Positions 300-11,750 are shown, numbered from the stretch's first letter. The stretch is 11,750 nt of DNA from a virus (IMGVR_UViG_2585427760_000003); one strand, 5' to 3'. Notes: generated by a model not told the origin, from the sequence alone. Program-made: numbers and translations.

Positions 300-693
300 G
301 CGTTTCGCTGGGAAAAAACGTGTATCCGGAGAGGATCATCTGAACGGCATGAAAAATATCATTCTGATCATTGCATTTACTGACAAAACCGTTAGCACCA
401 GCTTGTATCGCTCTGCCAGCATAAAAGCATTCTGATTTCGATGATAAAAATAACACTTTCACTGTGCTCTGGATTTGTTTGATCCTTTTCAGGAAGGTAA
501 AACCGTCTGTTCCGGGCAAGTCTATATCCATAATGATTAAATCAACAGGACGGGTTCGGAGATAATCGATGGTTATGCGGTAATCATCCGTTTTCAGGAC
601 AATCTGCAATTCACTGTTTTTTTGCAACAGAACTTCAATAGACATTCTGATGATAGGATGAGTATCCATAATGATCACCGACGTTGGTTTCAT
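295..693 (-). pseudogene. fimZ: fimZ response regulator (LuxR family), 3'-truncated by the IS1 insertion; encodes receiver domain only and loses the C-terminal HTH
   Basis: Minus-strand translation MKPTSVIIMDTHPIIRMSIEVLLQKNSELQIVLKTDDYRITIDYLRTRPVDLIIMDIDLPGTDGFTFLKRIK...SGYTFFPSET matches E. coli FimZ residues 1-131 from memory; the frame then reads R and a TAA stop (295-297) supplied by the IS1 end instead of native ...LNYIKSN. Upstream in-frame Met at 756 is probably not the start. Confidence 0.85.
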
Positions 694-935
694 AGTTACC
701 AGTCTCATAGGAGCGGACAATTTTCCGTTAGGGCGGTAAATTGTACTTTGATACATGAAAATACGGGTTTTCTTGATTCAGACGCGCAGCGATGTGCATT
801 TGTTTGCCGCTATAGCGAAATAAATCAGAAAATCAGACGCGGTCGTTCACTTGTTCAGCAACCAGATCAAAAGCCATTGACTCAGCAAGGGTTGACCGTA
901 TAATTCACGCGATTACACCGCATTGCGGTATCAAC

Positions 936-1012
936 GCGCCCTTAGCTCAGTTGGATAGAGCAACGACCTTCTAAGTCGTGGGCCGCAGGTTCGAATCCTG
1001 CAGGGCGCGCCA
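936..1012 (+). tRNA. argU: tRNA-Arg (anticodon UCU)
   Basis: 77-nt cloverleaf GCGCCCTTAGCTCAGTTGGATAGAGCAACGACCTTCTAAGTCGTGGGCCGCAGGTTCGAATCCTGCAGGGCGCGCCA; acceptor stem GCGCCCT/AGGGCGC, anticodon loop CTTCTAA with TCT at 970-972, T-loop GTTCGAATC, 3' CCA. Confidence 0.95.
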
Positions 1013-1027
1013 TTACAATTCAATCAG

Positions 1028-2191
1028 TTACGCCTTCTTTATATCCTCCATAATTCCAGAGTGGGACATATTTGGGACATTATCACCAAAAATGTCGTCT
1101 ATTTTCCTCGCATGCTCTGTCAAATGATTAGGCGCAAGGTGAGCATACCTACGAACCATTTCTATGGACTCCCATCCGCCCATTTCCTGAAGCACTGATA
1201 ATGGGACGCCTGACTGAATCAGCCAGCTTGCCCAGGTGTGTCTGAGGTCATGGAAACGGAAATCTTCAATTCCTGCACGACGACAAGCTGATAGCCATGA
1301 TGTCTTGCTGTCGATGCGCATCTTCCTGACCGCAGGCGTTGATGTTCCATCTGCTCGCTTAGCCGCCTTGGTATGTACAAACACCCATTTGTGATGCTTG
1401 CCTATTTGATCACGCAACACTTTACAGGCGGTATCGTTCAGCGCCACACCAATGGCGCGGTTTGATTTGCTCTCTTCTGGATTCACCCAGGCAACTCGTC
1501 GCTGCATGTCGATTTGTTGCCATTCCAGATTTATGATGTTCGACTTTCTCAGACCAGTTGCCAGCGCAAACTTGACGACAGATTTCAGTGGTTCGGGGCA
1601 CTCATCAATAAGGCGTTTTGCTTCCTCCTTTTCCAGCCATCTGACTCGCTTGTTTCTGACCGCTGGTATCTTGATGACAGGCGCTTTTTCCAGCCACTTC
1701 CAGTCGCGTTCTGCAGCACGGAGAATGGCCTTTATCATGGCAAGATGCTTTGCCTTTGTCTGAGTTGATACTGGCTTTGGTTCATAAACAGGCAGTTCTT
1801 TACCTTTCCTGATGGCGGCCTGAACTTTCTGTTTCCATATTTCTTTCGTCTTTCTGTTATGCATTCTGCTTACAGCAGAGTAAATCTTTGCCTCCGAGAT
1901 ATCTTTAAGCCTTATACCCTCAAAATGTTCAAGCCAGAACTCAATCCGGCTTTTATCTGAATCGAGAGATTTTTTATCAGCTTTTTCCTCAAGCCATCTT
2001 AGGCAGGCCTCTTCAAAAGTGACATCAGGTAAATCCCCTAGCTTTTCTACTCGCCAGAGTTCTGCTTTTCGCTTGTCGTGCAACTCCTGAGCTTGCCGCT
2101 TGTCCTTTGTGCCAAGAGATTCCTTAATTCGTTTCCCGCCCGGGAGCGAATACGAGGCATACCATATTTCATTTCTGCGGAAGAGTGACAT
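1028..2191 (-). CDS. intD: Prophage integrase, tyrosine recombinase family (DLP12 IntD-like), 387 aa
   Basis: 387-aa minus-strand ORF immediately adjacent to the tRNA 3' end; C-terminal catalytic region with [11 protein letters not shown] and VRRYAHL (catalytic Tyr) motifs; N-terminus [35 protein letters not shown]. Confidence 0.93.
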
Positions 2192-2418
2192 TTTCTTTCC
2201 TCTGTTATGCCATCACCCGCGCTCACCTGGACAGTATGCAGCGGAGACTGAAGCGCCGCAATGCAGGCTTGCCGTGTTGTGAGGTAAGGAGATTTTGGCT
2301 TGGTTGGATCTTTACGTGTTGCCTGTAGGCGGCCTGTTCGTATCCAGTTGGTGGCGGTTGGTCTGGATATCTTAAGAAACTGACAGGCCTCATCGAGTGT
2401 GAGGCTGTATGATTCCAT
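2047..2418 (-). CDS. Excisionase-like HTH protein (AlpA/Xis family); ORF is unusually long (123 codons) and overlaps the integrase start by 145 nt, so the 3' extension may not be genuine
   Basis: ATG at 2418-2416 preceded by GAGGT SD; N-terminal [31 protein letters not shown] resembles the HTH of AlpA-type excisionases; position directly upstream of int. Confidence 0.6.
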
Positions 2419-2668
2419 GGTTACCTCTGCTTTTTGAACGCATGTCACGTAACTTCTTAATGTGTTCTGCCGTTTCGATCTCTTCTGCTATCCGATCTGC
2501 ATCAGCTTTATTCACAGGTTCAAAGTCATGATTAAAGCGGAACATGCTGGCGATACATGTTCTGCCTTTTCGGATGTAGTGAACTTTGTTGTGGGTAGAA
2601 CGCAGGATTTTGCAGGGAGTGCCGTGGTGGTCGACGTACCAGGTGTTAGGAAAAATGATTCTGAACAT
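2390..2668 (-). CDS. Hypothetical protein, 92 aa (no family recognised)
   Basis: ORF with GAGGTG SD 5 nt upstream of ATG at 2668; codirectional with and between the TraR-like gene and xis; overlaps the xis start by 29 nt. Confidence 0.5.
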   Translation of the reverse strand: MFRIIFPNTWYVDHHGTPCKILRSTHNKVHYIRKGRTCIASMFRFNHDFEPVNKADADRIAEEIETAEHIKKLRDMRSKSRGNHGIIQPHTR

Positions 2669-2715
2669 TTTTACACCTCAGTTGGACGATGTTGAAATTT
2701 GCTGCTTTGAGGCCA

Positions 2716-2934
2716 TCACAGTCCCCATTGTTTGTTCTTAAGTTCGATCTCCTCCTGGCAACTCGCACAAGTCCGACAACCCTGAACAGCCAGGCGTCTT
2801 CGCTCATCTATCGGATCGCCACACTCACAACAATGAGTTGCGGATACAGTCTGGTAGTTCAGACGACGCATTTTTATTGCTGTATTGCGCTGTAATTCTT
2901 CGATTTCTGATGCTGAATCAATGATGTCTGCCAT
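2716..2934 (-). CDS. TraR/DksA-family C4-type zinc-finger protein, 72 aa
   Basis: Translation contains CECGDPIDERRRLAVQGCRTCASCQ, matching the TraR/DksA signature (compare F-plasmid TraR CEACGNPIPEARRKIFPGVTLCVECQ from memory). Confidence 0.75.
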   Translation of the reverse strand: MADIIDSASEIEELQRNTAIKMRRLNYQTVSATHCCECGDPIDERRRLAVQGCRTCASCQEEIELKNKQWGL

Positions 2935-2985
2935 CTTTCATTAATCCCTGAATTGTTGGTTAATACGCTTGAGGGTAAATGCGAA

Positions 2986-3011
2986 TAATAAAAAAGGAGC
3001 CTGTAGCTCCC
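2986..3011 (-). terminator. Candidate rho-independent terminator or attenuator on the minus strand, upstream of the TraR-like gene
   Basis: Minus-strand RNA GGGAGC-UACAG-GCUCCU followed by UUUUUUAUUAUU; short stem (5-6 bp), so weak; lies inside a 29-codon minus-strand ORF (2941-3030). Confidence 0.4.
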
Positions 3012-3161
3012 TGATGATTTTGCTTTTCATGTTCACCGTTCCTTAAAGACGCCGTTCAACATGCCGATCGCCATGCTTAAATGAGTCGGTGTGAATCCCA
3101 TCAGCGTTACCGTTTCGCGGTGCTTCTTTAGTATCTGGCTGAAAGAGGGGGTTATTAAGGC

Positions 3162-3524
3162 GTGAATACCTACAGCATCACATTACCCTGGCCTCCGAGC
3201 AATAATCGCTATTACCGCCATAATCGCGGGCGCACGCACGTCAGCGCAGAGGGGCAGGCATACCGCGATAACGTCGCCCGAATCATTAAAAACGCAATGC
3301 TGGATATCGGCCTGGCTATGCCTGTGAAAATCCGCATTGAGTGCCACATGCCGGATCGCCGTCGCCGTGACCTGGATAATCTGCAAAAAGCCGCTTTTGA
3401 CGCACTCACTAAAGCAGGTTTCTGGCTGGATGATGCTCAGGTCGTTGATTACCGCGTTGTGAAGATGCCTGTTACCAAAGGTGGGAGGCTGGAACTGACC
3501 ATCACCGAAATGGGGAATGAATGA
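3162..3524 (+). CDS. rusA: Holliday-junction resolvase RusA (crossover junction endodeoxyribonuclease), 120 aa, GTG start
   Basis: Translation [120 protein letters not shown] matches E. coli RusA from memory. Confidence 0.93.
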
Positions 3525-3661
3525 TGTTTGAGTTTTATATGGCAGAACTTCTTCGCCACCGCTGGGGGCATCTGCGCTTATATCGTTTCCCCGGTTCTGT
3601 TTTGACCGATTACCGAATACTGAAGAGTTACGCCAAAACCCTGACAGGAGCAGGAGTATGA
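3521..3661 (+). CDS. ylcG: Small nin-region protein YlcG-like, 46 aa
   Basis: ATG overlaps the rusA stop (ATGA); translation [46 protein letters not shown]; below the 60-aa ORF-track cutoff, identified by hand translation and synteny between rusA and quuD. Confidence 0.75.
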
Positions 3662-3746
3662 AGTCAGAGATAACAATCAACTAATACTGTTTTGTTGATT
3701 TTTGCTTGTAATTGGCGTTTTGGTCTGATTTTTGTGGAGTAAGTTG

Positions 3747-4130
3747 ATGCGTGATATTCAGATGGTTCTTGAGCGTTGGGGAGCGTGGGCGGCTAATAAT
3801 CATGAAGATGTGACCTGGTCGTCCATTGCCGCCGGTTTTAAGGGATTAATTCCTTCAAAAGTAAAATCTCGCCCGCAATGTTGTGACGATGACGCGATGA
3901 TCATTTGCGGGTGCATGGCCCGTCTGAAAAAGAACAACAGCGATTTGCACGATTTATTAGTAGATTATTATATAGTCGGTATGACATTCATGTCACTGGC
4001 AGGTAAGCATTGCTGCTCTGATGGTTATATCGGGAAAAGGTTACAAAAGGCTGAGGGCATAATTGAAGGGATGTTAATGGCATTAGATATCCGGTTAGAG
4101 ATGGATATCGTTGTTAATAACTCTAATTAA
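3747..4130 (+). CDS. quuD: Late-gene antiterminator Q homolog (phage-82-type Q, DLP12 QuuD), 127 aa
   Basis: [67 protein letters not shown]...; ATG at 3747 with GGAG SD at 3736-3739; the ORF track starts at an upstream TTG (3732), which I consider less likely. Confidence 0.88.
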
Positions 4131-4150
4131 TACGCCAATTATTTACTAAA

Positions 4151-4181
4151 AGTTATTAAAAATGGGGCGTTGAAGCGCCCC
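4151..4181 (-). terminator. Rho-independent terminator on minus strand (GC-rich hairpin plus U-tract), likely ending the nmpC transcript
   Basis: GGGGCG (4164-4169) / CGCCCC (4176-4181) stem with 6-nt loop; on the minus strand it is followed by AUUUUUAAUAACU. On the plus strand it is followed by an A-run, so it is not a plus-strand terminator. Confidence 0.6.
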
Positions 4182-4318
4182 CAAAAATAAAGGGTAATAT
4201 ATAACAGAAGGTTTGTATAGTTAGAAGCAAGGTTGTGCTTCTAAAGGAAGTGGCTTGAGGGAGCCACTTATATGTTGGGGAGGCAAAGCCTCCCACAACA
4301 TATCTTTTAGTAATCAAA

Positions 4319-5401
4319 TTAGAACTGGTAAACCATACCTACAGCAACGATATCATCGGTAGCAACGCCAGATGCTTTCGTGAAATCGCTCTTATCAATC
4401 AGGTTGATTTTGTAGTCAACAAAAGTGGACATATTTTTGTTGAAGTAATAGGTTGCACCTACATCAACATATTCAACCAGGTCCTGATCACCCCAAACAC
4501 CCAAGTCTTTTCCTTTAGAATGCAGGTAAGCAACGGATGGACGCAGGCCGAAGTCGAACTGATATTGTGCAACAGCTTCGAAGTTTTGTGCTTTGTTGGC
4601 AATATGGTTATTACCAAAAACAGTCATGTTCTGGGTTTCAGAATAGGTGGTGGCCAGATAGATGTTGTTCGCATCATATTTCAGACCAGCTGCCCATACT
4701 TCAGCATTTTGACCAGAAGCATTCAGACCGTTGTTACCGTAGATAACCTGATTATTAGTGCGATCAGATTTAGCATAGGTTGCACCCACGCCGAATCCTT
4801 CATACTCATAAGTAGTTGAGAAACCGAAACCATCGCCATTAGCTTCAGTTACTTCATTTCGGTCATTTTTGCCCTGATACTGAGCTGCAAAGTTCAGGCC
4901 ATCAACCAGACCAAAGAAGTCGTTGTTACGATAAGTTGCAACACCTGTGGTGCGACCAGTCATGAACACATCTGTTTGGGTCCAGGTATCGCCACCGAAT
5001 TCTGGCAGAACGTCAGTCCACGCACCGATGTCGTATGCTACACCGTAGTTACGGCCGTAATCGATTGAGCCGTAGTCACCGAATTTCAGGCCAGCGAAGG
5101 CAAGACGGGTTTTATCTTTGGAGGAACCTTGAGATTCAGCGCGGTTGCCTTTGAATTCATATTCCCACTGACCGAAACCAGTCAGTTGATCGTTGATTTG
5201 GGTTTCACCTTTGAAGCCAAGACGGGCATAAGTAGTATCACCATCATCTGCATCATTAGAGGAGAAGTAGTGCTTAGCATTAACTTTCCCGTACAGATCC
5301 AGCTTGTTACTGTCTTTATTATAAATTTCAGCTGCCTGAGCAGACATCGCCATCAGTACTGATGCAGCTACAGCAGAAATTGCCACTGTTAATTTTTTCA
5401 T
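4319..5401 (-). CDS. nmpC: Outer-membrane general porin NmpC (OmpC/OmpF/PhoE family), apparently intact, 360 aa
   Basis: Signal peptide [23 protein letters not shown] then [16 protein letters not shown]; porin motifs throughout; C-terminal ...VGMVYQF typical of beta-barrel porins; placed on the opposite strand between Q and the lysis genes as in DLP12. Confidence 0.9.
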
Positions 5402-5829
5402 CGTGAGCCCTTTTTTTTGAACTATTATTAAAAAATGATGTCACTGCGCGATAAATATTCATCTAATCAATGTGATTATTTCAAGATGTAAGTTTTGGTT
5501 TCTCGTTTAATTTGTGAAGTAGATCTCTATTTTTATCTGAACTTTTTTCTATCGAATCCTATTCATGGCTCTTGGCTGAATAAAAATAAATCTATTAGCC
5601 AATTTATATTAATGGCTGTTATTTATAAGTGCTCTATAATTTGAAGGTTCAATTTAAATTGGCTAAAAATAACGCTGGAAATTATTTGTTGGTTATTTGT
5701 TGAGATTTTCTTATGTATTTGTAGTGGTGTTTTCAATACTCGGTAGCATTCTCGCAAATATCATTTAGTGGTTTACGTACGTAAAAAATTGGTTATGCTG
5801 TTAAGAGTGGTTACTTCGTTACACAGCTT

Positions 5830-5862
5830 AAACCCGCCGTCGAGCGGGTTTTTCCATTTTTT
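5830..5862 (+). terminator. Rho-independent terminator upstream of essD; candidate tR'-like terminator of a short late-promoter transcript
   Basis: AACCCGC (5831-5837) / GCGGGTT (5844-5850) stem, 6-nt loop, followed by TTTCCATTTTTT; sits ~110 bp upstream of the holin start. Confidence 0.55.
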
Positions 5863-5974
5863 GAGTCTCGATATTAGCTGATAACCCAATACCTGAGTTA
5901 TTCACTGACTCCGAGTCTGTTACGTTTCGTAGTATTCCCTCAATTTACACCCGCTTTGTCTGCGAGGTGGGGTT

Positions 5975-6190
5975 ATGAAATCCATGGATAAGTTAACAAC
6001 GGGTGTCGCCTATGGCACCTCAGCAGGTAGTGCCGGGTACTGGTTTTTACAGCTGCTCGATAAAGTCACGCCCTCACAGTGGGCAGCAATAGGTGTGCTG
6101 GGTAGCCTGGTATTTGGCCTGCTGACGTACCTGACAAACCTTTATTTCAAGATTAAAGAAGATAAGCGCAAGGCTGCGAGAGGTGAATAA
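5975..6190 (+). CDS. essD: Phage-21-type class II holin (pinholin S21 homolog) with dual-start motif, 71 aa
   Basis: [71 protein letters not shown]; two TM segments; Met1 and Met4 (5975 and 5984) give the holin/antiholin dual start; GAGGTGG SD upstream. Confidence 0.9.
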
Positions 6191-6687
6191 TGCCTCCATC
6201 ATTACGAAAAGCTGTTGCTGCTGCTATTGGTGGCGGGGCTATTGCTATAGCATCTGTGTTAATCACTGGCCCAAGTGGTAACGATGGTCTGGAAGGTGTG
6301 AGACATAATCCTTACAAAGACATAGTTGGTGTATGGACTGTATGTTACGGGCATACAGGAAAAGACATCATTCCCGGTAAAACGTATACCGAAGCAGAGT
6401 GCAAAGCCCTCCTGAATAAAGACCTTGCCACTGTCGCCAGACAAATTAACCGGTACATCAAAGTCGATATACCGGAAACAACGCGCGGCGCTCTTTACTC
6501 GTTCGTCTACAACGTGGGTGCTGGCAATTTCAGAACATCGACGCTTCTTCGCAAAATAAACCAGGGTGATATTAAAGGCGCATGTGATCAGCTACGGCGC
6601 TGGACATACGCTGGCGGTAATCAATGGAAAGGACTGATGACTCGCCGTGAGATTGAGCGTGAAGTCTGTTTGTGGGGGAAACAATGA
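6190..6687 (+). CDS. rrrD: SAR endolysin (T4-lysozyme-like muramidase with N-terminal signal-anchor-release domain), 165 aa
   Basis: N-terminal Gly/Ala-rich hydrophobic SAR segment [20 protein letters not shown] followed by lysozyme catalytic region [23 protein letters not shown]; start overlaps the essD stop (TAATG). Confidence 0.9.
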
Positions 6688-7142
6688 GCAGAGTAACCGC
6701 GATTATCTCCGCTCTGGTTATCTGCATCATCGTCTGCCTGTCATTGGCTGTTAATCATTACCGTGATAACGCAATCGCCTACAAAGAGCAGCGCGATAAC
6801 AAGGCCAGTGAACTGGAGAAGGCGAACGCCACCATCGCTGACATGCGGAAGCGTCAACGTGATGTAGCAGAACTCGACGCAAGATACACAAAGGAGCTTG
6901 CTGATGCTAACGCGACTATCGAAAGTCTCCGTGCTGATGTTTCTGCTGGGCGTAAGCGCCTGCAAGTCGCCGCCACCTGTGCAAAGTCAACGACCGGAGC
7001 CAGCGGCATGGGCGATGGAGAAAGCCCAGGACTTACAGCAGATGCTGAACTCAATTATTACCGTCTCCGAAGTGGAATCGACAAGATAACCGCGCAGGTT
7101 AACTACCTGCAGGAATACATCAGGACGCAATGCCTGAAATAA
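6684..7142 (+). CDS. rzpD: Spanin inner-membrane subunit Rz (i-spanin), 152 aa
   Basis: ATG overlaps the rrrD stop (ATGA); N-terminal TM segment [20 protein letters not shown] then coiled-coil-like periplasmic domain; ORF track starts at an upstream GTG (6672). Confidence 0.85.
6904..7089 (+). CDS. rzoD: Spanin outer-membrane lipoprotein subunit Rz1 (o-spanin), embedded in the +1 frame of rzpD, 61 aa
   Basis: AAGGAG SD at 6891-6896, ATG at 6904; lipoprotein signal [20 protein letters not shown] with lipobox Cys, proline-rich mature region [13 protein letters not shown]; fully nested inside rzpD. Confidence 0.75.
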
Positions 7143-7174
7143 TTTTTTTGCAAATCACAAAGTCCATTTAATGA

Positions 7175-7198
7175 GCCTCGCGATGCGGGGCTTTTTTT
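7175..7198 (+). terminator. Rho-independent terminator after the lysis cassette
   Basis: GCCTCGC-GAT-GCGGGGC stem-loop (7 bp including one G-U) followed by TTTTTTT, ~33 bp downstream of the rzpD stop. Confidence 0.65.
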
Positions 7199-7437
7199 AC
7201 ATCTGAATTTCACAGCGCATCTCACGCGCATATTACATCACCCGAGCCTTTCAGAAAGTTGAGCCTGAGAACTGCCGTATATGGTGGCGACCATCTCGGG
7301 GCGGCTTTTCTGTGAGACAGGCTCACTTTCTAAAAGGTAAAGACGCTATGAACCAATTAGAAGAAAAGCTTCAAAGAATGATTTCCTTATACAAGGAAGA
7401 TAACTGCCAAAAAGTTCCTTAAAACATCGCAGAGTTA

Positions 7438-7836
7438 ATGGAATTGGCAAGTGAATTTTCTGGCATGCTTAAGTCGTCAGGTGTTCGGTCAGCGTTCTTT
7501 GTTGAAATGCTGATGCACGGCGGACTTATGGCAACAATGAGACGTGTAATGGAAGACCAGAGAAAAGAACCTCCTCAGGTATACGTTTTGTCATCGAAGA
7601 AAACTGGGCTAACCAAAATTGGGTATTCATCCAACATTCCACAACGCATCAAATCGCTTGGCAACTCTGGACCAGACTGCTTGAAGCTTGAGTGCCTGAT
7701 CCCTGGTGGAAGAGAAACTGAAAACATGCTTCATCGCAAATTTGCCGCAAAGAGAAAGCACGGTGAATGGTTCGCCCTGTCCAAGGATGACATTGAGGGA
7801 TTGAAATCTGTAGCGATTACTTCTGATGGCTATTAA
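7438..7836 (+). CDS. T5orf172 / GIY-YIG-like domain protein, 132 aa (cargo gene at the position occupied by bor in lambda)
   Basis: C-terminal ~85 residues QVYVLSSKKTGLTKIGYSSNIPQRIKSLGNSGPDCLKLECLIPGGRETENMLHRKFAAKRKHGEWFALSKDDIEGL fit the T5orf172 pattern as I recall it (YVL...KIGYT/S...R...EWF); weak SD; an upstream in-frame 24-codon ORF (7348-7422) is separated by a single TAA. Confidence 0.6.
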   Translation: MELASEFSGMLKSSGVRSAFFVEMLMHGGLMATMRRVMEDQRKEPPQVYVLSSKKTGLTKIGYSSNIPQRIKSLGNSGPDCLKLECLIPGGRETENMLHRKFAAKRKHGEWFALSKDDIEGLKSVAITSDGY

Positions 7837-8514
7837 TGCTTGTTTAGAGCAATTTTCATAACAACTCTTCATTACAAAGCCCATCTACTGGTGGGCTTGA
7901 TAATGAAACCGTGATTTACATCCCCACAATCCGGGTATGTAAAAGATAGTTCAGGCGAGAACGGATTTAACTAAATCTGTGCGCCACCAGTTAACGGCAG
8001 TACCACGAAACAACCCAAGCCAGTAAGTGGGGAAATAACACCGGCAGCCACTGAAAGATGAACCTCCTGCCTTATGGCAAAAAAGATTCTTTGTGGTGGC
8101 GGACTGATGGAAAGACATCCTAATTTCAGCCAAACATTGAAGGAGTTGTTATGTCAGCAGAAGGTTTCAATAACCCATCAAAATTCCGGGATGAGTGGGA
8201 TAGCAGCGTAAAGAGTAAGTGATGCCATCACAAAAGCCATTCCCTACAGAGTGGCTTTGATAATGGCTTATACCCTACACGGGATAACTTAACTGATATC
8301 CTTTTTAAAGGATAAAGGTATTCAAGCCTGACACATCATGCGCTGTATCGTCGCCGTATTCCCGTATTAACAGAGACCGTAGCCCGACGGGGAACTCCTT
8401 CTGCGCGAGTGTGCGGGAATAATCAAAAACGATGCACACCGGGGTTACCGGGTACACATATTTCATCATGCCAGCGAGTCCGGTTCTGGCACGGAAGAAA
8501 CCGGACGTTATGAT

Positions 8515-8925
8515 TTAGTGCGGAAATATTTGTGTAGTGTTCTGAATGTTCTCAGTAAAGAGTAATGAATTATCAAAGGTATAGTAATACCTTTTGTTTT
8601 CGTGGATATTTGTAATCCATCTGAAAACCCCTGCTGTAGCAAGATTTTTCCTGTATTCGTAAAATGATAACTCTCCTGATTTGAATCCTTTTAATGTGGT
8701 TTCTATAAGGCATTTATTTTTTGAAAATCTTACATTTACAACCTTACCCTGTCCTTTTATTAAAACCGTATTATCGTTTTCAAGAACAAGATGAATATTC
8801 TCTGTGGCTAAATAGTAAATGTAATGTGAGACATTGTGACGTTTTAGTTCAGAATAAAACCAGTGATAGTTTAAATTATTTCGCACTTTATCGAATATTT
8901 GTTTAAAAATGGCAACCTGAGCCAT
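8515..8925 (-). CDS. Hypothetical AT-rich protein, 136 aa, no signal peptide or TM segment; possibly equivalent to the protein annotated in K-12 DLP12 as YbcV (recollection, unverified)
   Basis: Minus-strand ORF in a visibly AT-rich segment; likely start at the second Met (8925, GGAAGG-like SD 7 nt upstream) giving [31 protein letters not shown]...; Tyr/Asn-rich, soluble-looking. Confidence 0.6.
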
Positions 8926-8982
8926 TGTAGTACCTTCCATGTGATATGAAGGTACCTAGTCTGCACGATTATCTAAATTGCT

Positions 8983-9216
8983 TCAATCTGGTCTGACCTG
9001 CTTTCTGAGCAATTCAGTAATGTCACTCTTTTCTTTGTTTGCTTCAGGCGAAACTCTTTTTTCTGAGCACAGTCTTCGGCGGCAGGCTTCAATGACCCAG
9101 GCTGAGAAATTCCCGGACCCTTTTTGATCAAGAGCGATGTTAATTTGTTCAATCATTTGGTTAGGAAAGCGGATGTTGCGGGTTGTTGTTCTGCGGGTTC
9201 TGTTCTTCGTTGACAT
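8983..9216 (-). CDS. Small putative ribbon-helix-helix (CopG/Arc-like) DNA-binding protein, 77 aa
   Basis: Basic N-terminus MSTKNRTRRTTTRNIRFPNQMIEQINIALDQKGSGNFSAWVIEACRRRL fits a beta-strand/helix/helix RHH layout; codirectional with and 57 bp upstream of the 136-aa gene; ~200 bp from cosN. Confidence 0.5.
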   Translation of the reverse strand: MSTKNRTRRTTTRNIRFPNQMIEQINIALDQKGSGNFSAWVIEACRRRLCSEKRVSPEANKEKSDITELLRKQVRPD

Positions 9217-9359
9217 GAGGTTGTCCCGTATTCAGTGTCGCTGATTTGTATTGTCTGAAGTTGTTTTTACGTTAAGTTGATGCAGATCAATTAATATGAT
9301 ACCTGCGTCATAATTGATTATTTGACGTGGTTTGATGGCGTAGATGCACGTTGTGACAT

Positions 9360-9604
9360 GCAGATGATAATTATTATCATTTTGCGGGTCCTTTCCGGCG
9401 ATCCGACAGGTTACGGGGCGGCGACCTCGCGGGTTTTCGCTATTTATGAAAATTTTCCGGTTTAAGGCGTTTCCGTTCTTCTTCGTCGTAACTTAATGTT
9501 TTTATTTAAAATACCCCCTGAAAAGAAAGGAAACGACAGGTGCTGAAAACGAACTTTTGGGCCTTTGTCGTTTCCTTTCTCTGTTTTTGGCCGTGGAATG
9601 AACA
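9360..9604. other. Lambda-type cos site: cosQ/cosN/cosB, with the cosN 12-nt cohesive-end sequence GGGCGGCGACCT at 9416-9427
   Basis: 9380-9600 is near-identical to my recollection of the lambda genome left end and preceding right end (..GTTACG GGGCGGCGACCT CGCGGGTTTTCGCTATTTATGAAAATTTTCCGGTTTAAGGCG...); inverted Nu1-binding R-site-like repeats AGAAAGGAAACGACAG / CTGTCGTTTCCTTTCT at ~9523-9580. Confidence 0.85.
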
Positions 9605-10429
9605 ATGGAAGTCAACAAAAAGCAGCTGGCTGACATTTTCGGTGCGAGTATCCGTACCATTCAGAACTGGCAGGAACAGGGAATGCCCGTTCTGCGAGGC
9701 GGTGGCAAGGGTAATGAGGTGCTTTATGACTCTGCCGCCGTTATAAGATGGTATGCCGAAAGGGATGCTGAAATTGAGAACGAAAAGCTGCGCCGGGAAG
9801 TTGAAGAACTGCGGCAGGCCAGCGAGACAGATCTCCAGCCAGGGACTATTGAGTACGAACGCCATCGACTTACGCGTGCGCAGGCCGACGCACAGGAGCT
9901 GAAAAATGCCAGAGACTCCGCTGAAGTGGTGGAAACCGCATTCTGTACTTTCGTGCTGTCGCGGATCGCAGGTGAAATTGCCAGTATTCTCGACGGGATC
10001 CCCCTGTCGGTGCAGCGGCGTTTCCCGAACGGCACGGTCGATGTGTTCCGCGGCTGGGTCAGCAGTATCGGTAAGGCGGTGACGGCGAAGGAAGTGATTA
10101 CCCGCACGGTGAAAGTCACCAACGTAGGACGTCCGTCGATGGCAGAAGATCGCAGCACGGTAACAGCGGCAACCGGCATGACCGTGACGCCTGCCAGCAC
10201 CTCGGTGGTGAAAGGGCAGAGCACGACGCTGACCGTGGCATTCCAGCCGGAAGGCGCAACCGACAAGAGCTTCCGTGCGGTGTCTGCGGATAAAACAAAA
10301 GCCACCGTGTCGGTCAGTGGTATGACCATCACCGTGAAAGGTGTTGCTGCAGGCAAGGTCAACATTCCGGTCGTATCCGGTAATGGTGAGTTTGCTGCGG
10401 TTGCAGAAATCAACGTCACCGCCAGTTAA
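9605..10429 (+). CDS. nohD: Chimeric ORF: terminase small subunit Nu1 homolog (residues ~1-140) fused in frame to the C-terminal Ig-like (Big_2) domain of major tail protein V; 274 aa
   Basis: [46 protein letters not shown]...[14 protein letters not shown] matches lambda Nu1; from ...[60 protein letters not shown]... to ...AEINVTAS matches the lambda gpV C-terminus from memory; switch at ~10018-10027 within shared CGTTTCCCG. The nohD symbol applies to the Nu1-like part only. Confidence 0.85.
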
Positions 10430-10444
10430 TCCGGAGAGTCAGCG

Positions 10445-10795
10445 ATGTTCCTGAAAACCGAATCATTTGAACATAACGGTGTGACCGTCACGCTTTCTGA
10501 ACTGTCAGCCCTGCAGCGTATTGAGCATCTCGCCCTGATGAAACGACAGGCAGAACAGGCGGAGTCAGACAGCAACCGGAAGTTTACTGTGGAAGACGCC
10601 ATCAGAACCGGCGCTTTTGTGGTGGCGATGTCCCTGTGGCATAACCATCCGCAGAAGACAAAGCTGCCTTCTATGAATGAATTGGTGCTCATACGCACTC
10701 CGTTGCGATTGGTTCACATGGACACACCATCACCGTTAACGCTGCTGGTAACGCGGAAAACACCGTCAAAAACATCGCATTTAACTATATTGTGA
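10445..10795 (+). pseudogene. Tail assembly chaperone G remnant (first ~79 codons) joined out of frame to the 3' end of a side tail fiber (stf) gene
   Basis: MFLKTESFEHNGVTVTLSELSALQRIEHLALMKRQAEQAESDSNRKFTVEDAIRTGAF..WHNHPQKT..PSMNE matches lambda gpG; from ~10681 a different frame reads [41 protein letters not shown] (stop 10804-10806), the His-x-His-rich C-terminus of Stf-type tail fibers. Confidence 0.8.
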
Positions 10796-10805
10796 GGCTT
10801 GCATA

Positions 10806-11390
10806 ATGGCATTCAGAATGAGTGAACAACCACGGACCATAAAAATTTATAATCTGCTGGCCGGAACTAATGAATTTATTGGTGAAGGTGATGCATATAT
10901 TCCGCCTCATACAGGTCTGCCAGCAAACAGTACCGATATTGCACCGCCAGATATTCCTGCTGGCTTTGTGGCTGTTTTCAACAGTGATGAGGCATCGTGG
11001 CATCTCGTTGAAGACCATCGGGGTAAAACGGTTTATGACGTAGCGTCAGGGGACGCGTTATTTATTTCTGAACTCGGTCCGTTACCGGAAAATGTTACCT
11101 GGTTATCGCCGGAAGGGGAGTTTCAGAAGTGGAACGGCACAGCCTGGGTGAAAGATGCAGAAGCAGAAAAACTGTTCCGGATCCGGGAGGCGGAAGAAAC
11201 AAAAAACAGCCTGATGCAGGTAGCCAGTGAGCATATTGCGCCACTTCAGGATGCTGTAGATCTGGAAATCGCAACGGAGGAAGAAACCTCATTGCTGGAA
11301 GCCTGGAAAAAGTATCGGGTGTTGCTGAACCGTGTTGATACATCAACTGCACCTGATATTGAGTGGCCTACGAACCCTGTCAGGGAGTAA
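10806..11390 (+). CDS. tfaD: Tail fiber assembly protein Tfa, 194 aa, intact
   Basis: [79 protein letters not shown]... is near-identical to lambda Tfa with scattered substitutions; ATG overlaps the stf-frame stop (TAATG). The tfaD symbol is by synteny with DLP12. Confidence 0.85.
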
Positions 11391-11444
11391 TCATTGGGAT
11401 TATGCCGCAGCACGTCTTAAGCAAGAACGTGCTGCGGTTGGATG

Positions 11445-11750
11445 CTATTTTTTCCCTGAAGCGGAAAACATTACTACAGTACCTTGAACCTTGGTTTTAA
11501 CATTCTCGAAATGCTCTGAGAGTATATGTGTTAAGCCTTCTTCGGAATCTTTTGTGTTTGAAAAGATGCCTTTCTGATTGTAAATGCGCATCAGTTTTTG
11601 ACCGAAGCTATTGTGCACAACTCCATCGCCAAGAATTGTGGCTCCGTATAGAGTTCCATCGTCAGTTAAGGCCTGCGCCGCATTGCGTATTACACAGCTT
11701 TTTGTAGATATATTTCCAGGCAGGCAGTGAAGAAGGTAAAACATGGAAAT
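11445..11750 (-). CDS. Hypothetical protein, C-terminal portion (5' end probably beyond the window edge)
   Basis: Minus-strand ORF open to the window edge (two further in-frame codons upstream of the ATG at 11744); no family recognised; position corresponds to the gene convergent with tfa in lambdoid prophages. Confidence 0.4.
   Translation of the reverse strand: MSMFYLLHCLPGNISTKSCVIRNAAQALTDDGTLYGATILGDGVVHNSFGQKLMRIYNQKGIFSNTKDSEEGLTHILSEHFENVKTKVQGTVVMFSASGKK

Follow-up and report, generated by a model that had tools for sequence, protein, structure and literature searches.

As judged from gene content and order, the prophage in the window (the whole stretch of 11,750 nucleotides analyzed here) is DLP12, the lambdoid and heavily decayed cryptic prophage that lies between argU/intD and appY/ompT in Escherichia coli. 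From position 300 to 11750, the window differs by one mismatch from E. coli 14EC033 (L001, China) and by three mismatches from E. coli 100416 (L002, the Gambia). The annotation of these two genomes shows a tRNA-Arg gene (argU) and intD on one side and appY/ompT on the far side, with rusA, quuD, a porin gene, essD, rrrD, rzpD, cos, and a Nu1 homologue in the late region. On the left, the order is fimZ, tRNA-Arg, intD, and then rusA, quuD, an ompC-like porin gene, essD, rrrD, and a lysis gene, after which come a GIY-YIG-like gene, a DUF1398 gene, a ylcI-like gene, and Nu1'. On the right, Nu1' is followed by an Ig-like (V') ORF, gpG', a "phage tail protein" (stf'), tfa, a methyltransferase gene, tfaX', appY, and ompT. 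Positions 1 to 299 of the window are the 3' end of an IS1 element sitting in fimZ. This insertion is missing from both 14EC033 and 100416, and the window therefore represents a further, closely related strain.

The right part of the window carries the following features.

9416 to 9427, plus strand: cos cohesive-end sequence, GGGCGGCGACCT (lambda position 1 is window position 9416)
9605 to 10429, plus strand: Nu1'::V' fusion ORF left by a first deletion (junction at 10019 to 10027, about 8.67 kb lost)
10445 to 10681, plus strand: tail assembly chaperone gene G, 5' 79 codons, truncated (aligns with lambda 9711 to 9947; 99.8% to G of L003)
10445 to 10795, plus strand: chimeric pseudogene ORF of 116 amino acids (G codons 1 to 79 plus 37 out-of-frame codons)
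10681, plus strand: deletion junction, a single A common to both parents (from parent-versus-product alignment; BLAST overlap of 1 nt)
10681 to 10806, plus strand: stf 3' end, last 41 codons plus TAA, 126 nt (lambda 21848 to 21973)
10794 to 10797, plus strand: GAGG, putative Shine-Dalgarno-like sequence native to tfa, 8 nt ahead of its ATG (function inferred from sequence)
10806 to 11390, plus strand: tail fiber assembly gene tfa, intact, 194 amino acids (Pfam PF02413, Caudo_TAP, 3.2e-45; PHROG 105, 4e-101)
11445 to 11750, minus strand: class I SAM-dependent methyltransferase gene (ybcY-like), 3' part (annotated in L001/L002; colinear with L004)

The alignment of window positions 9416 to 10027 with lambda 1 to 613 shows that cos and the N terminus of Nu1 are preserved, as the first-pass annotation had stated. 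In the Nu1'::V' ORF, Pfam identifies Phage_Nu1 at residues 1 to 145, then the C terminus of the lambda tail tube protein and Big_2. At the other end of the region, the methyltransferase gene follows tfa, its usual position at the DLP12 locus.

The ORF that begins at 10445 had been read as G through the residues PSMNE, at about 10681, and from there as the 3' end of stf in another frame, with nucleotide alignment to lambda G and stf proposed as the way to locate the breakpoint. This alignment, carried to the base, places the breakpoint at 10681, after G codon 79, and shows that 10681 to 10806 is indeed stf derived and is read in the +1 frame relative to the G ORF. The G part is identical to lambda G at 76 of 79 residues and matches Pfam PF06894 at profile positions 1 to 80 of 126. 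From 10682 onwards, the chimeric ORF reads LVLIRTPL...TIL and ends at a TGA situated 11 nt upstream of the tfa ATG, whereas the Stf C terminus is encoded in the frame that starts at 10681.

Neither fragment retains the features of its parent gene. Full-length gpG has about 140 amino acids, of which only residues 1 to 79 are left. The G-T slippery heptamer GGGAAAG, found at offset 398 in lambda G, does not occur in window positions 10445 to 10806, and gene T is deleted. An intact Stf is a long ORF (about 770 to 1,020 amino acids) with an N-terminal tail attachment domain and a receptor-binding region, encoded in L003 and L004 by 3.0 to 3.1 kb, compared with the 41 codons that survive here; no start codon feeds the stf tail in its own frame, and the NCBI pipeline PGAP labels it in L001 and L002 as "phage tail protein, missing N-terminus." Given the lack of the slippery site, of T, and of a start codon for the stf tail, both fragments are pseudogene remnants. 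Because the join shifts the frame, its product is a chimeric pseudogene rather than a functional fusion, and the G'-stf' ORF has no plausible function.

In contrast to these remnants, tfa is complete, as had been claimed, with 184 of 194 residues identical to lambda Tfa and 193 of 194 to Tfa of L004. It carries its Caudo_TAP domain and starts on the stop codon of the fiber gene. The stf TAA (10804 to 10806) overlaps the tfa ATG (10806 to 10808) as TAATG, and the same overlap is found in lambda at position 21973, which bears out the earlier reading of this overlap. The putative GAGG lies within the stf tail that was kept. No promoter-like sites were found on the plus strand between 9381 and 11750, so tfa expression, if any, would need read-through from upstream, and the sequence suggests that tfa is expressible only in this way.

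The extent of the deletion can be read from two strains that carry a full lambda-like morphogenetic region at the same DLP12 locus, RM14723 (L003) and S1-CAM-02-A (L004), in the order nohD, A, W, B, C, D, E, FI, FII, Z, U, V, G, T, H, M, L, K, I, J, lom, stf, tfa. Window positions 10019 to 10681 (V and G) align with L003 19720 to 20382 at 99.8 to 100% and also with lambda 9285 to 9947, and positions 10681 to 11750 align with L004 20001 to 21070 (stf 3' end, tfa, and methyltransferase) at 99.8%, with two mismatches, and also with lambda 21848 to 22608. At the G::stf junction, 12,587 bp are missing by comparison with L003, 12,717 bp by comparison with L004, and 11,900 bp by comparison with lambda. 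Comparison with these full-length loci confirms the predicted loss of the G 3' end, T, H, M, L, K, I, J, lom, and nearly all of stf, and the morphogenetic remnant, from the Nu1 start at 9605 to the stf stop at 10806, measures about 1.2 kb as proposed.

At the join (crossing points are marked here by a slash), the parents read ...ATGAA/GCC in G and ...CGGTA/TTGG in stf. Over a longer stretch, G reads ...ATGAATGAA/GCCGTT and stf reads ...ACTGTCGGTA/TTGGTGCT, and the product is ...ATGAATGAATTGGTGCT. The flanks are colinear with their parents and overlap by 1 nt (A), and the parent-versus-product alignment revealed no filler bases, which is the structure of an illegitimate (microhomology-mediated) deletion. 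The arrangement does not correspond to an adjacent deletion mediated by an insertion sequence, as G abuts stf directly and the only IS1 sequence of the window, at 1 to 299, is distant. The G::stf junction is thus very probably an illegitimate deletion of about 12.6 to 12.7 kb that occurred in situ and joined G codon 79 to the last 41 codons of stf. A single nonhomologous event of this kind would have taken all of the sequences listed above, including about 3 kb of stf.

The two flanks differ in their closest relatives. The V-G part is best matched by the L003 type (94% identity to L004), the stf'-tfa part is best matched by L004 (96.2% identity to L003), and none of the sampled strains matches both flanks equally well. 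This indicates that the immediate ancestor was an unsampled mosaic or that the right flank was converted later.

The first-pass annotation had asked if the junction is shared and ancestral or specific to certain strains, and comparison across strains answers in favor of a single lineage. Among 5,426 complete E. coli genomes, a 241-nt probe over the G::stf junction was covered in one piece in two, and a 311-nt probe over the Nu1::V junction was covered in one piece in the same two; none of the 5,426 carries only one of the two junctions. The known carriers of the G::stf junction are 14EC033, 100416, the strain of the window, and a metagenome-derived viral contig (L109) that is 99.67% identical to the window over 7.6 kb. 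Since the two junctions occur together and no intermediate was found, the scar is specific to a lineage and not ancestral to the DLP12 of E. coli. The allele is new, is passed on within a small lineage, and, as a single event, represents ordinary prophage decay.

The right breakpoint is not particular to this event. It lies at a site of stf, here named S1, that reads GG/TATTGGTGCTC (GTCGG/TATTGG), 125 nt upstream of the tfa ATG and, in the protein, bordering the penultimate GxHxH "His box" of Stf on its 5' side. The best non-self matches of the window junction probe were two other remnants in which homology starts at the same base: L005, a prophage near prfC in which the Nu1 C terminus (...ALDELI) is joined to stf', and L006, a variant of Qin with J (...AVQHV) fused to stf'. 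A protein database search with the 40-residue out-of-frame tail as the query returned 10 proteins and led to fusions at S1, confirmed at the DNA level, with P (codon 33), the N terminus of a Nu1-like gene (codon 18), and Z (codon 27). FI-like, M-like, E, and K-like partners and one unidentified sequence came from pattern scans of IMG/VR and metagenomes, and two further events found in such scans (L179 and L182) are in-frame internal deletions of stf. A scan of one genome per species for TATTGGTGCTC preceded by a base other than G gave no match.

Altogether, S1 has at least 14 independent left partners, that is, the window and at least 13 other deletions in different prophages. The partners of lambda type are G, Nu1, J, P, Z, FI, M, E, and A, and the others are the Nu1-like gene, the K-like gene, which comes from another tail module, the unidentified sequence, and stf itself in the two in-frame internal deletions. 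The independence of these events follows from single-nucleotide differences among their right flanks and from their different loci (DLP12, Qin, the prfC side, and others). All joins read ...N/TATTGGTGCTCATACGC, or /ATTGG in the window. Microhomology is mostly 1 to 4 nt, with 8 nt in one case and a patch of 9 matches in 10 for A, and tfa is intact in every S1 remnant examined. Two of the remnants may be products of a second-step deletion, L006 from a junction of the L017 type (an 11-nt patch with 10 matches) and L013 from a junction of the L059 type.

A second site, S2, was found while checking truncated stf ORFs. It lies about 950 nt upstream of tfa and reads GTCGGG/TAACCG (...AAAGGTCGGG/TAACCGCGCTGACAGAC). 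The S2 module is present in 37 IMG/VR loci, and its upstream sequence is normal in 29 of them; seven carry seven different nonfiber sequences at the TA, and the last is joined about 20 nt further upstream. A directed scan gave one more partner (L186), and the nohA::stfQ junction in the Qin prophage of K-12 MG1655 also lies at S2 (GAGTGAATATA/ACCGCGCTGAC), which brings the partners of S2 to at least nine. In a few alleles (L190 and L205), S2 is also a module boundary.

Several of the S1 examples came from searches that targeted S1; these serve for the tally only and were excluded from the statistics, which are based on two IMG/VR pattern samples not aimed at any junction. These samples hold about 25 distinct junctions with a right end in stf (about 3.1 kb), an approximate number obtained by eye, with 3 at S1, 7 at S2, and about 15 scattered. 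The scattered junctions use ordinary mixed microhomologies such as GGGTGT, ATACC, ACGGATA, GTT, and AA. Under a uniform model, the probability that at least 2 of the 24 other events fall within 2 nt of the prespecified S1 is about 7e-4, and the expected number of 5-nt intervals with at least 7 of the 25 events is about 9e-12. S1 is a deletion hot spot fixed to the nucleotide, and the conclusion that junctions cluster is robust to the approximate count. Literature searches returned no description of breakpoints at S1 or S2.

The junctions at the two sites share a set of features that constrain how they could arise. In 21 of 23, the crossing occurs at a TA present in both parents, and in the remaining two (the window and L145), only the A is common. 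The bases of stf to the left of the TA are never unambiguously retained, the base at position −1 matching stf no more than by chance (2 of 12 at S1 and 0 of 8 at S2), and the longer matches, where present, run rightwards into the stf sequence that is kept (TATTGGTG and TAACCGCG). On the left side, some ends recur with different right ends, namely, J at CATGTA, Z, and A at lambda 957 and at lambda 1018, which suggests either left-side hot spots or stepwise nested deletions. In the simplest reading of these features, a DNA end (or, on the bottom strand, a 3'-OH) would arise repeatedly just past the TA of S1 or S2 and would then be joined to any upstream sequence offering a terminal match of 1 to 2 nt. 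Such an end could come from a nuclease that produces 2-nt 3' overhangs, from a recombinase that works on pseudosites, or from a precise replication stop. A recurrent end at S1 that is joined upstream would also account for the frequent survival of tfa as an orphan. Our tentative reading is that S1 and S2 may be sites at which DNA ends are produced repeatedly and in a sequence-specific manner, by a phage or host nuclease or recombinase or by a precise replication arrest, and that the joining of these ends to an upstream TA might drive a directional and stereotyped decay of the morphogenetic region, which would account for the abundance of orphan tfa genes in E. coli cryptic prophages, including K-12 Qin.

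This explanation can be refined by supposing that a site-specific enzyme cut stf at GG/TA and that the end was ligated to another TA. The enzyme could be a serine-type recombinase that crosses over at TA and acts on S1, S2, and pseudosites, or else a nuclease producing a 2-nt 3' TA overhang. The exact crossing at TA in 21 of the 23 junctions, the lack of any unambiguously retained stf base to its left, and the lack of filler DNA all point in this direction, as do the motif GTCGG(N)TA, which S1 and S2 share with the reused A-gene site, and the reused left ends in A (lambda 957 and 1018), J (CATGTA), and Z, which also cross at TA. However, no candidate enzyme was found, and S1 and S2 have neither dyad symmetry nor any sequence resembling hix, gix, or pix. 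Furthermore, the H, J, and A genes contain GTCGG(G)TA at other places where no junctions are known, the single junctions elsewhere in stf use ordinary mixed microhomologies (such as GGGTGT, GTT, AA, and ATACC), inversion products were not seen, and reciprocal junctions, with the left half of S1 or S2 retained, are rare. An enzyme of this kind is therefore possible but, on the evidence from both sides, rather doubtful. The pix sites of e14 (PMC12529663) are unrelated to S1 and S2.

Several other origins for the two sites were considered and rejected. Neither site contains the 26-bp crossover site of the Pin/Gin/Hin type (...AAACC NN GGTTT...), and inverted-repeat matches near pinR are at chance level. 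The only hix-like sequence of the window, at 11479 to 11504, lies away from the junction. Replication arrest at a hairpin or cruciform finds no support, since both strands of the 101 nt around S1 and S2 fold with z-scores between 0.0 and 0.5. S1 does not mark the edge of homology among fiber alleles, since most alleles are homologous for at least 40 to 70 nt to its left and the boundaries of BLAST blocks cluster at −168, −186, −196, −694, and −721 and not at −125. Resemblances to Chi, to a XerC arm (GGTGCTCATAC, 9 of 11 matches to dif), to cos, and to an IS1 end do not fit in position or orientation and are attributed to chance (compared by eye with consensus sequences). The footprint of a TA-specific transposon was discarded as well, as a search for element ends gave none and the partners are built like deletions, not like insertions.

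The stf'-tfa-methyltransferase segment could instead have been imported from another prophage by homology-facilitated illegitimate recombination, with a homology anchor on the right and an illegitimate join on the left. The different closest relatives of the two flanks would fit such a history, and donors would be plentiful, as the stf'-tfa module is present at a median of three places per E. coli genome. Both flanks, however, stand in the native order and orientation of the DLP12 locus, and the right flank runs unbroken into the locus-specific methyltransferase, tfaX, and appY, as in L004. As ordinary homologous exchange among DLP12 alleles fits the pattern of identities equally well, import is unlikely, and deletion in situ is retained as the origin of the junction.

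Selection could also fix a breakpoint, if only those deletions persisted that keep tfa translated through coupling to an upstream ORF, so that junctions pile up at S1. In line with this, tfa is intact in all the S1 remnants examined, and in the window, L005, and L006, the upstream ORF continues into stf' in the +1 frame and ends 11 nt upstream of the tfa ATG. Nevertheless, the frames are evenly spread among the S1 junctions found by means other than the peptide search, with G, Nu1, and J in the +1 frame, FI and E in the native frame, and M, A, and the K-like gene in the third, so that selection for coupled translation of tfa does not explain the clustering. The +1 frame is also open for at least 23 codons upstream of S1 (P0001), so that selection cannot place 14 independent endpoints within 1 nt of each other, and S2 lies far from tfa, at about 950 nt. 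This makes selection a very unlikely source of the clustering. The multicopy nature of the tfa module in E. coli genomes could invite misassembly, but the probability that the junction is an assembly artifact is negligible, given that it is identical in two independent complete genomes, the window strain, and a metagenomic contig, that an overlap of 1 nt is not bridgeable by an assembler without spanning reads, and that K-12 MG1655 has an analogous junction at S2.

The erosion of prophages is commonly seen as a process of random deletion on which selection then acts. The observations reported here show that two nucleotide-precise endpoints in stf, one of them used in the reference strain K-12, collect a large share of independent deletions across prophages, loci, and strains. 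If a specific DNA-breaking activity is responsible, it would explain the persistent stf'-tfa remnants of E. coli, and the domestication of prophages would be partly channeled by mutation. It would also offer a simple assay testable by PCR, in which junctions ending at S1 or S2 are amplified directly.

The closest known structures are those of other DLP12 alleles. The DLP12 of K-12 (nohD - aaaD' - tfaD' - ybcY' - tfaX') shares with the window the locus, the gene order on both sides, and the loss of the morphogenetic region by illegitimate deletion, with cos, Nu1, and tfa sequences left behind. In K-12, however, a single deletion runs from A at lambda 1018 to within tfa at lambda 22119 (CCCTTAT/TCCAGC), leaving nohD intact and tfa truncated, whereas the window has undergone two deletions and retains V and G fragments and an intact tfa. 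The DLP12 of LR-45 (nohD - A' :: stf' - tfa) has, at the same locus, the same right breakpoint at S1, the same 126-nt stf tail, and an intact tfa, but a single deletion with its left end in A at lambda 957 produced it (patch GTCGGTTATT against GTCGG-TATT), so that Nu1 is intact and V and G fragments are absent. Further deletion cannot turn any of these three structures into another, and the K-12 type, the LR-45 type, and the window type document at least three independent erosions of the DLP12 locus.

The Qin prophage of K-12 (nohA - stfQ - tfaQ - pinQ) offers a parallel at another locus. As in the window, cos and Nu1 sequences have come to lie next to a 3' fragment of stf that is followed by an intact tfa, cos and Nu1 being joined to it directly in Qin. 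The junction crosses at TA with a microhomology of 2 nt. In this case, Nu1 is joined at S2, so that 320 stf codons survive as an ORF, and a pin recombinase gene lies downstream of tfaQ.

Deletions with one endpoint fixed to the nucleotide and the other variable, with little or no homology between them, are known from the nick site of the M13/f1 origin in plasmids and from the Int-promoted b deletions of lambda that start at attP. The junctions at S1 and S2 follow the same pattern of one fixed endpoint. In those systems, the fixed end is known to be cleaved by an identified enzyme (gene II protein or Int), whereas for S1 and S2 we know of no enzyme and no recognized site. Tetart and coworkers reportedly described, in 1998, recombination at His boxes in the tail fiber genes of T-even phages. 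The position of S1 at the edge of a His box recalls this process, and an in-frame deletion between His-box repeats does occur among the fiber genes surveyed here (L047, 72 nt, with no mosaic joint). The T-even exchange, however, is homologous recombination between fiber genes, whereas G, the partner of stf in the window, contains no His box and has a single nucleotide in common with stf at the join.

The breakpoint in stf used by the window (S1, GG|TATTGG, 125 nt before the tfa start codon) recurs in deletions of different structure. At the DLP12 locus of E. coli LR-45, a single deletion joins A, at lambda position 957, to truncated stf, unlike the arrangement in the window, and its right end falls on the same S1 base. 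Two more junctions have the A-gene site GTGTCGGTTATT as their left end: those of loci L090, where it is joined to S2 (the second recurrent stf breakpoint, about 950 nt before tfa), and L051. Lambda position 1018 in A is the left end common to L026 and the K-12 aaaD::tfaD junction. An additional stf site, CCTGATA|TGCGTGGCTGG, is reused in four loci (L026, L034, L214, and L182): A::stf and J::stf junctions have it as their right end, and an internal stf deletion running to S1 has it as its left end. These positions are as follows:

NZ_AP027532.1 1079077-1082495 (locus L212), around locus position 1840: LR-45 junction.
L004 (S1-CAM-02-A, full morphogenetic region), 19569 region, about 555 nt upstream of the tfa start codon: CCTGATA site.

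Deletions are also found within fibre genes that remain in frame. Comparison of L047 (5,400-5,600) with L134 shows an in-frame deletion of 72 nt in an intact tail-fibre gene, lying between two GGTGCTCATAC(C/G)CACTC His-box repeats (DGAHTHS[...]VAIG), and this shows that the repeats adjoining S1 do recombine. Two metagenomic loci, L179 (OOCT01000180.1) and L182 (OCPJ01000310.1), carry in-frame "mini-stf" genes, in which an N-terminal part of stf ending in GADIPD and SGVIPD, respectively, is fused at S1 directly to IGAHTHS...RLA, followed by tfa.

Three further features of the window are as follows:

1-299: 3' end of an IS1 element inserted within fimZ, with the inverted repeat ...AAGTTGGAGTCATTACC at its terminus.
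7438-7836, + strand: T5orf172/MUG113-domain protein, 132 aa.
9605-10429: Nu1'::V' fusion ORF of truncated Nu1 and V, 274 aa, uninterrupted.

The fusion protein comprises the DNA-binding N terminus of Nu1 followed by the C-terminal Ig-like (Big_2) domain of V, and RefSeq splits its ORF into two features. At the Nu1::V junction, the perfect match is only 2 nt, within an 11-nt patch with 9/11 positions matching. The insertion of IS1 in fimZ is absent from both near-identical complete genomes (14EC033 and 100416), so the window represents a third strain of this lineage, with fimZ disrupted.

The T5orf172/MUG113 gene occupies the place of borD in K-12 DLP12; RefSeq annotates its product as a GIY-YIG nuclease family protein, and its PHROG match is 4284, a family of unknown function. 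In L009-L012, tfa is immediately followed by a distinct gene with a GIY-YIG-like (LEM-3 type) annotation. At window 11479-11504, GTACCTTGAACCTTGGTTTTAACATT is similar to a hix/gix-type invertase crossover site (AACC TT GGTTTT); this sequence falls inside the ybcY-like methyltransferase gene, at its 3' end. RM14723 (L003) carries an inserted pinR-ydfK-ynfT block some 100 nt upstream of the corresponding position.

S2 is the exact position of the nohA::stfQ junction (GAGTGAATATA|ACCGCGCTGAC) in the Qin prophage of K-12 MG1655:

Within NC_000913.3 1633500-1639500 (locus L175): nohA::stfQ junction, at the nohA/stfQ overlap.

The annotated StfQ ORF takes its GTG start codon from Nu1 sequence, and in other genomes S2 is joined to eight further independent left partners besides nohA.
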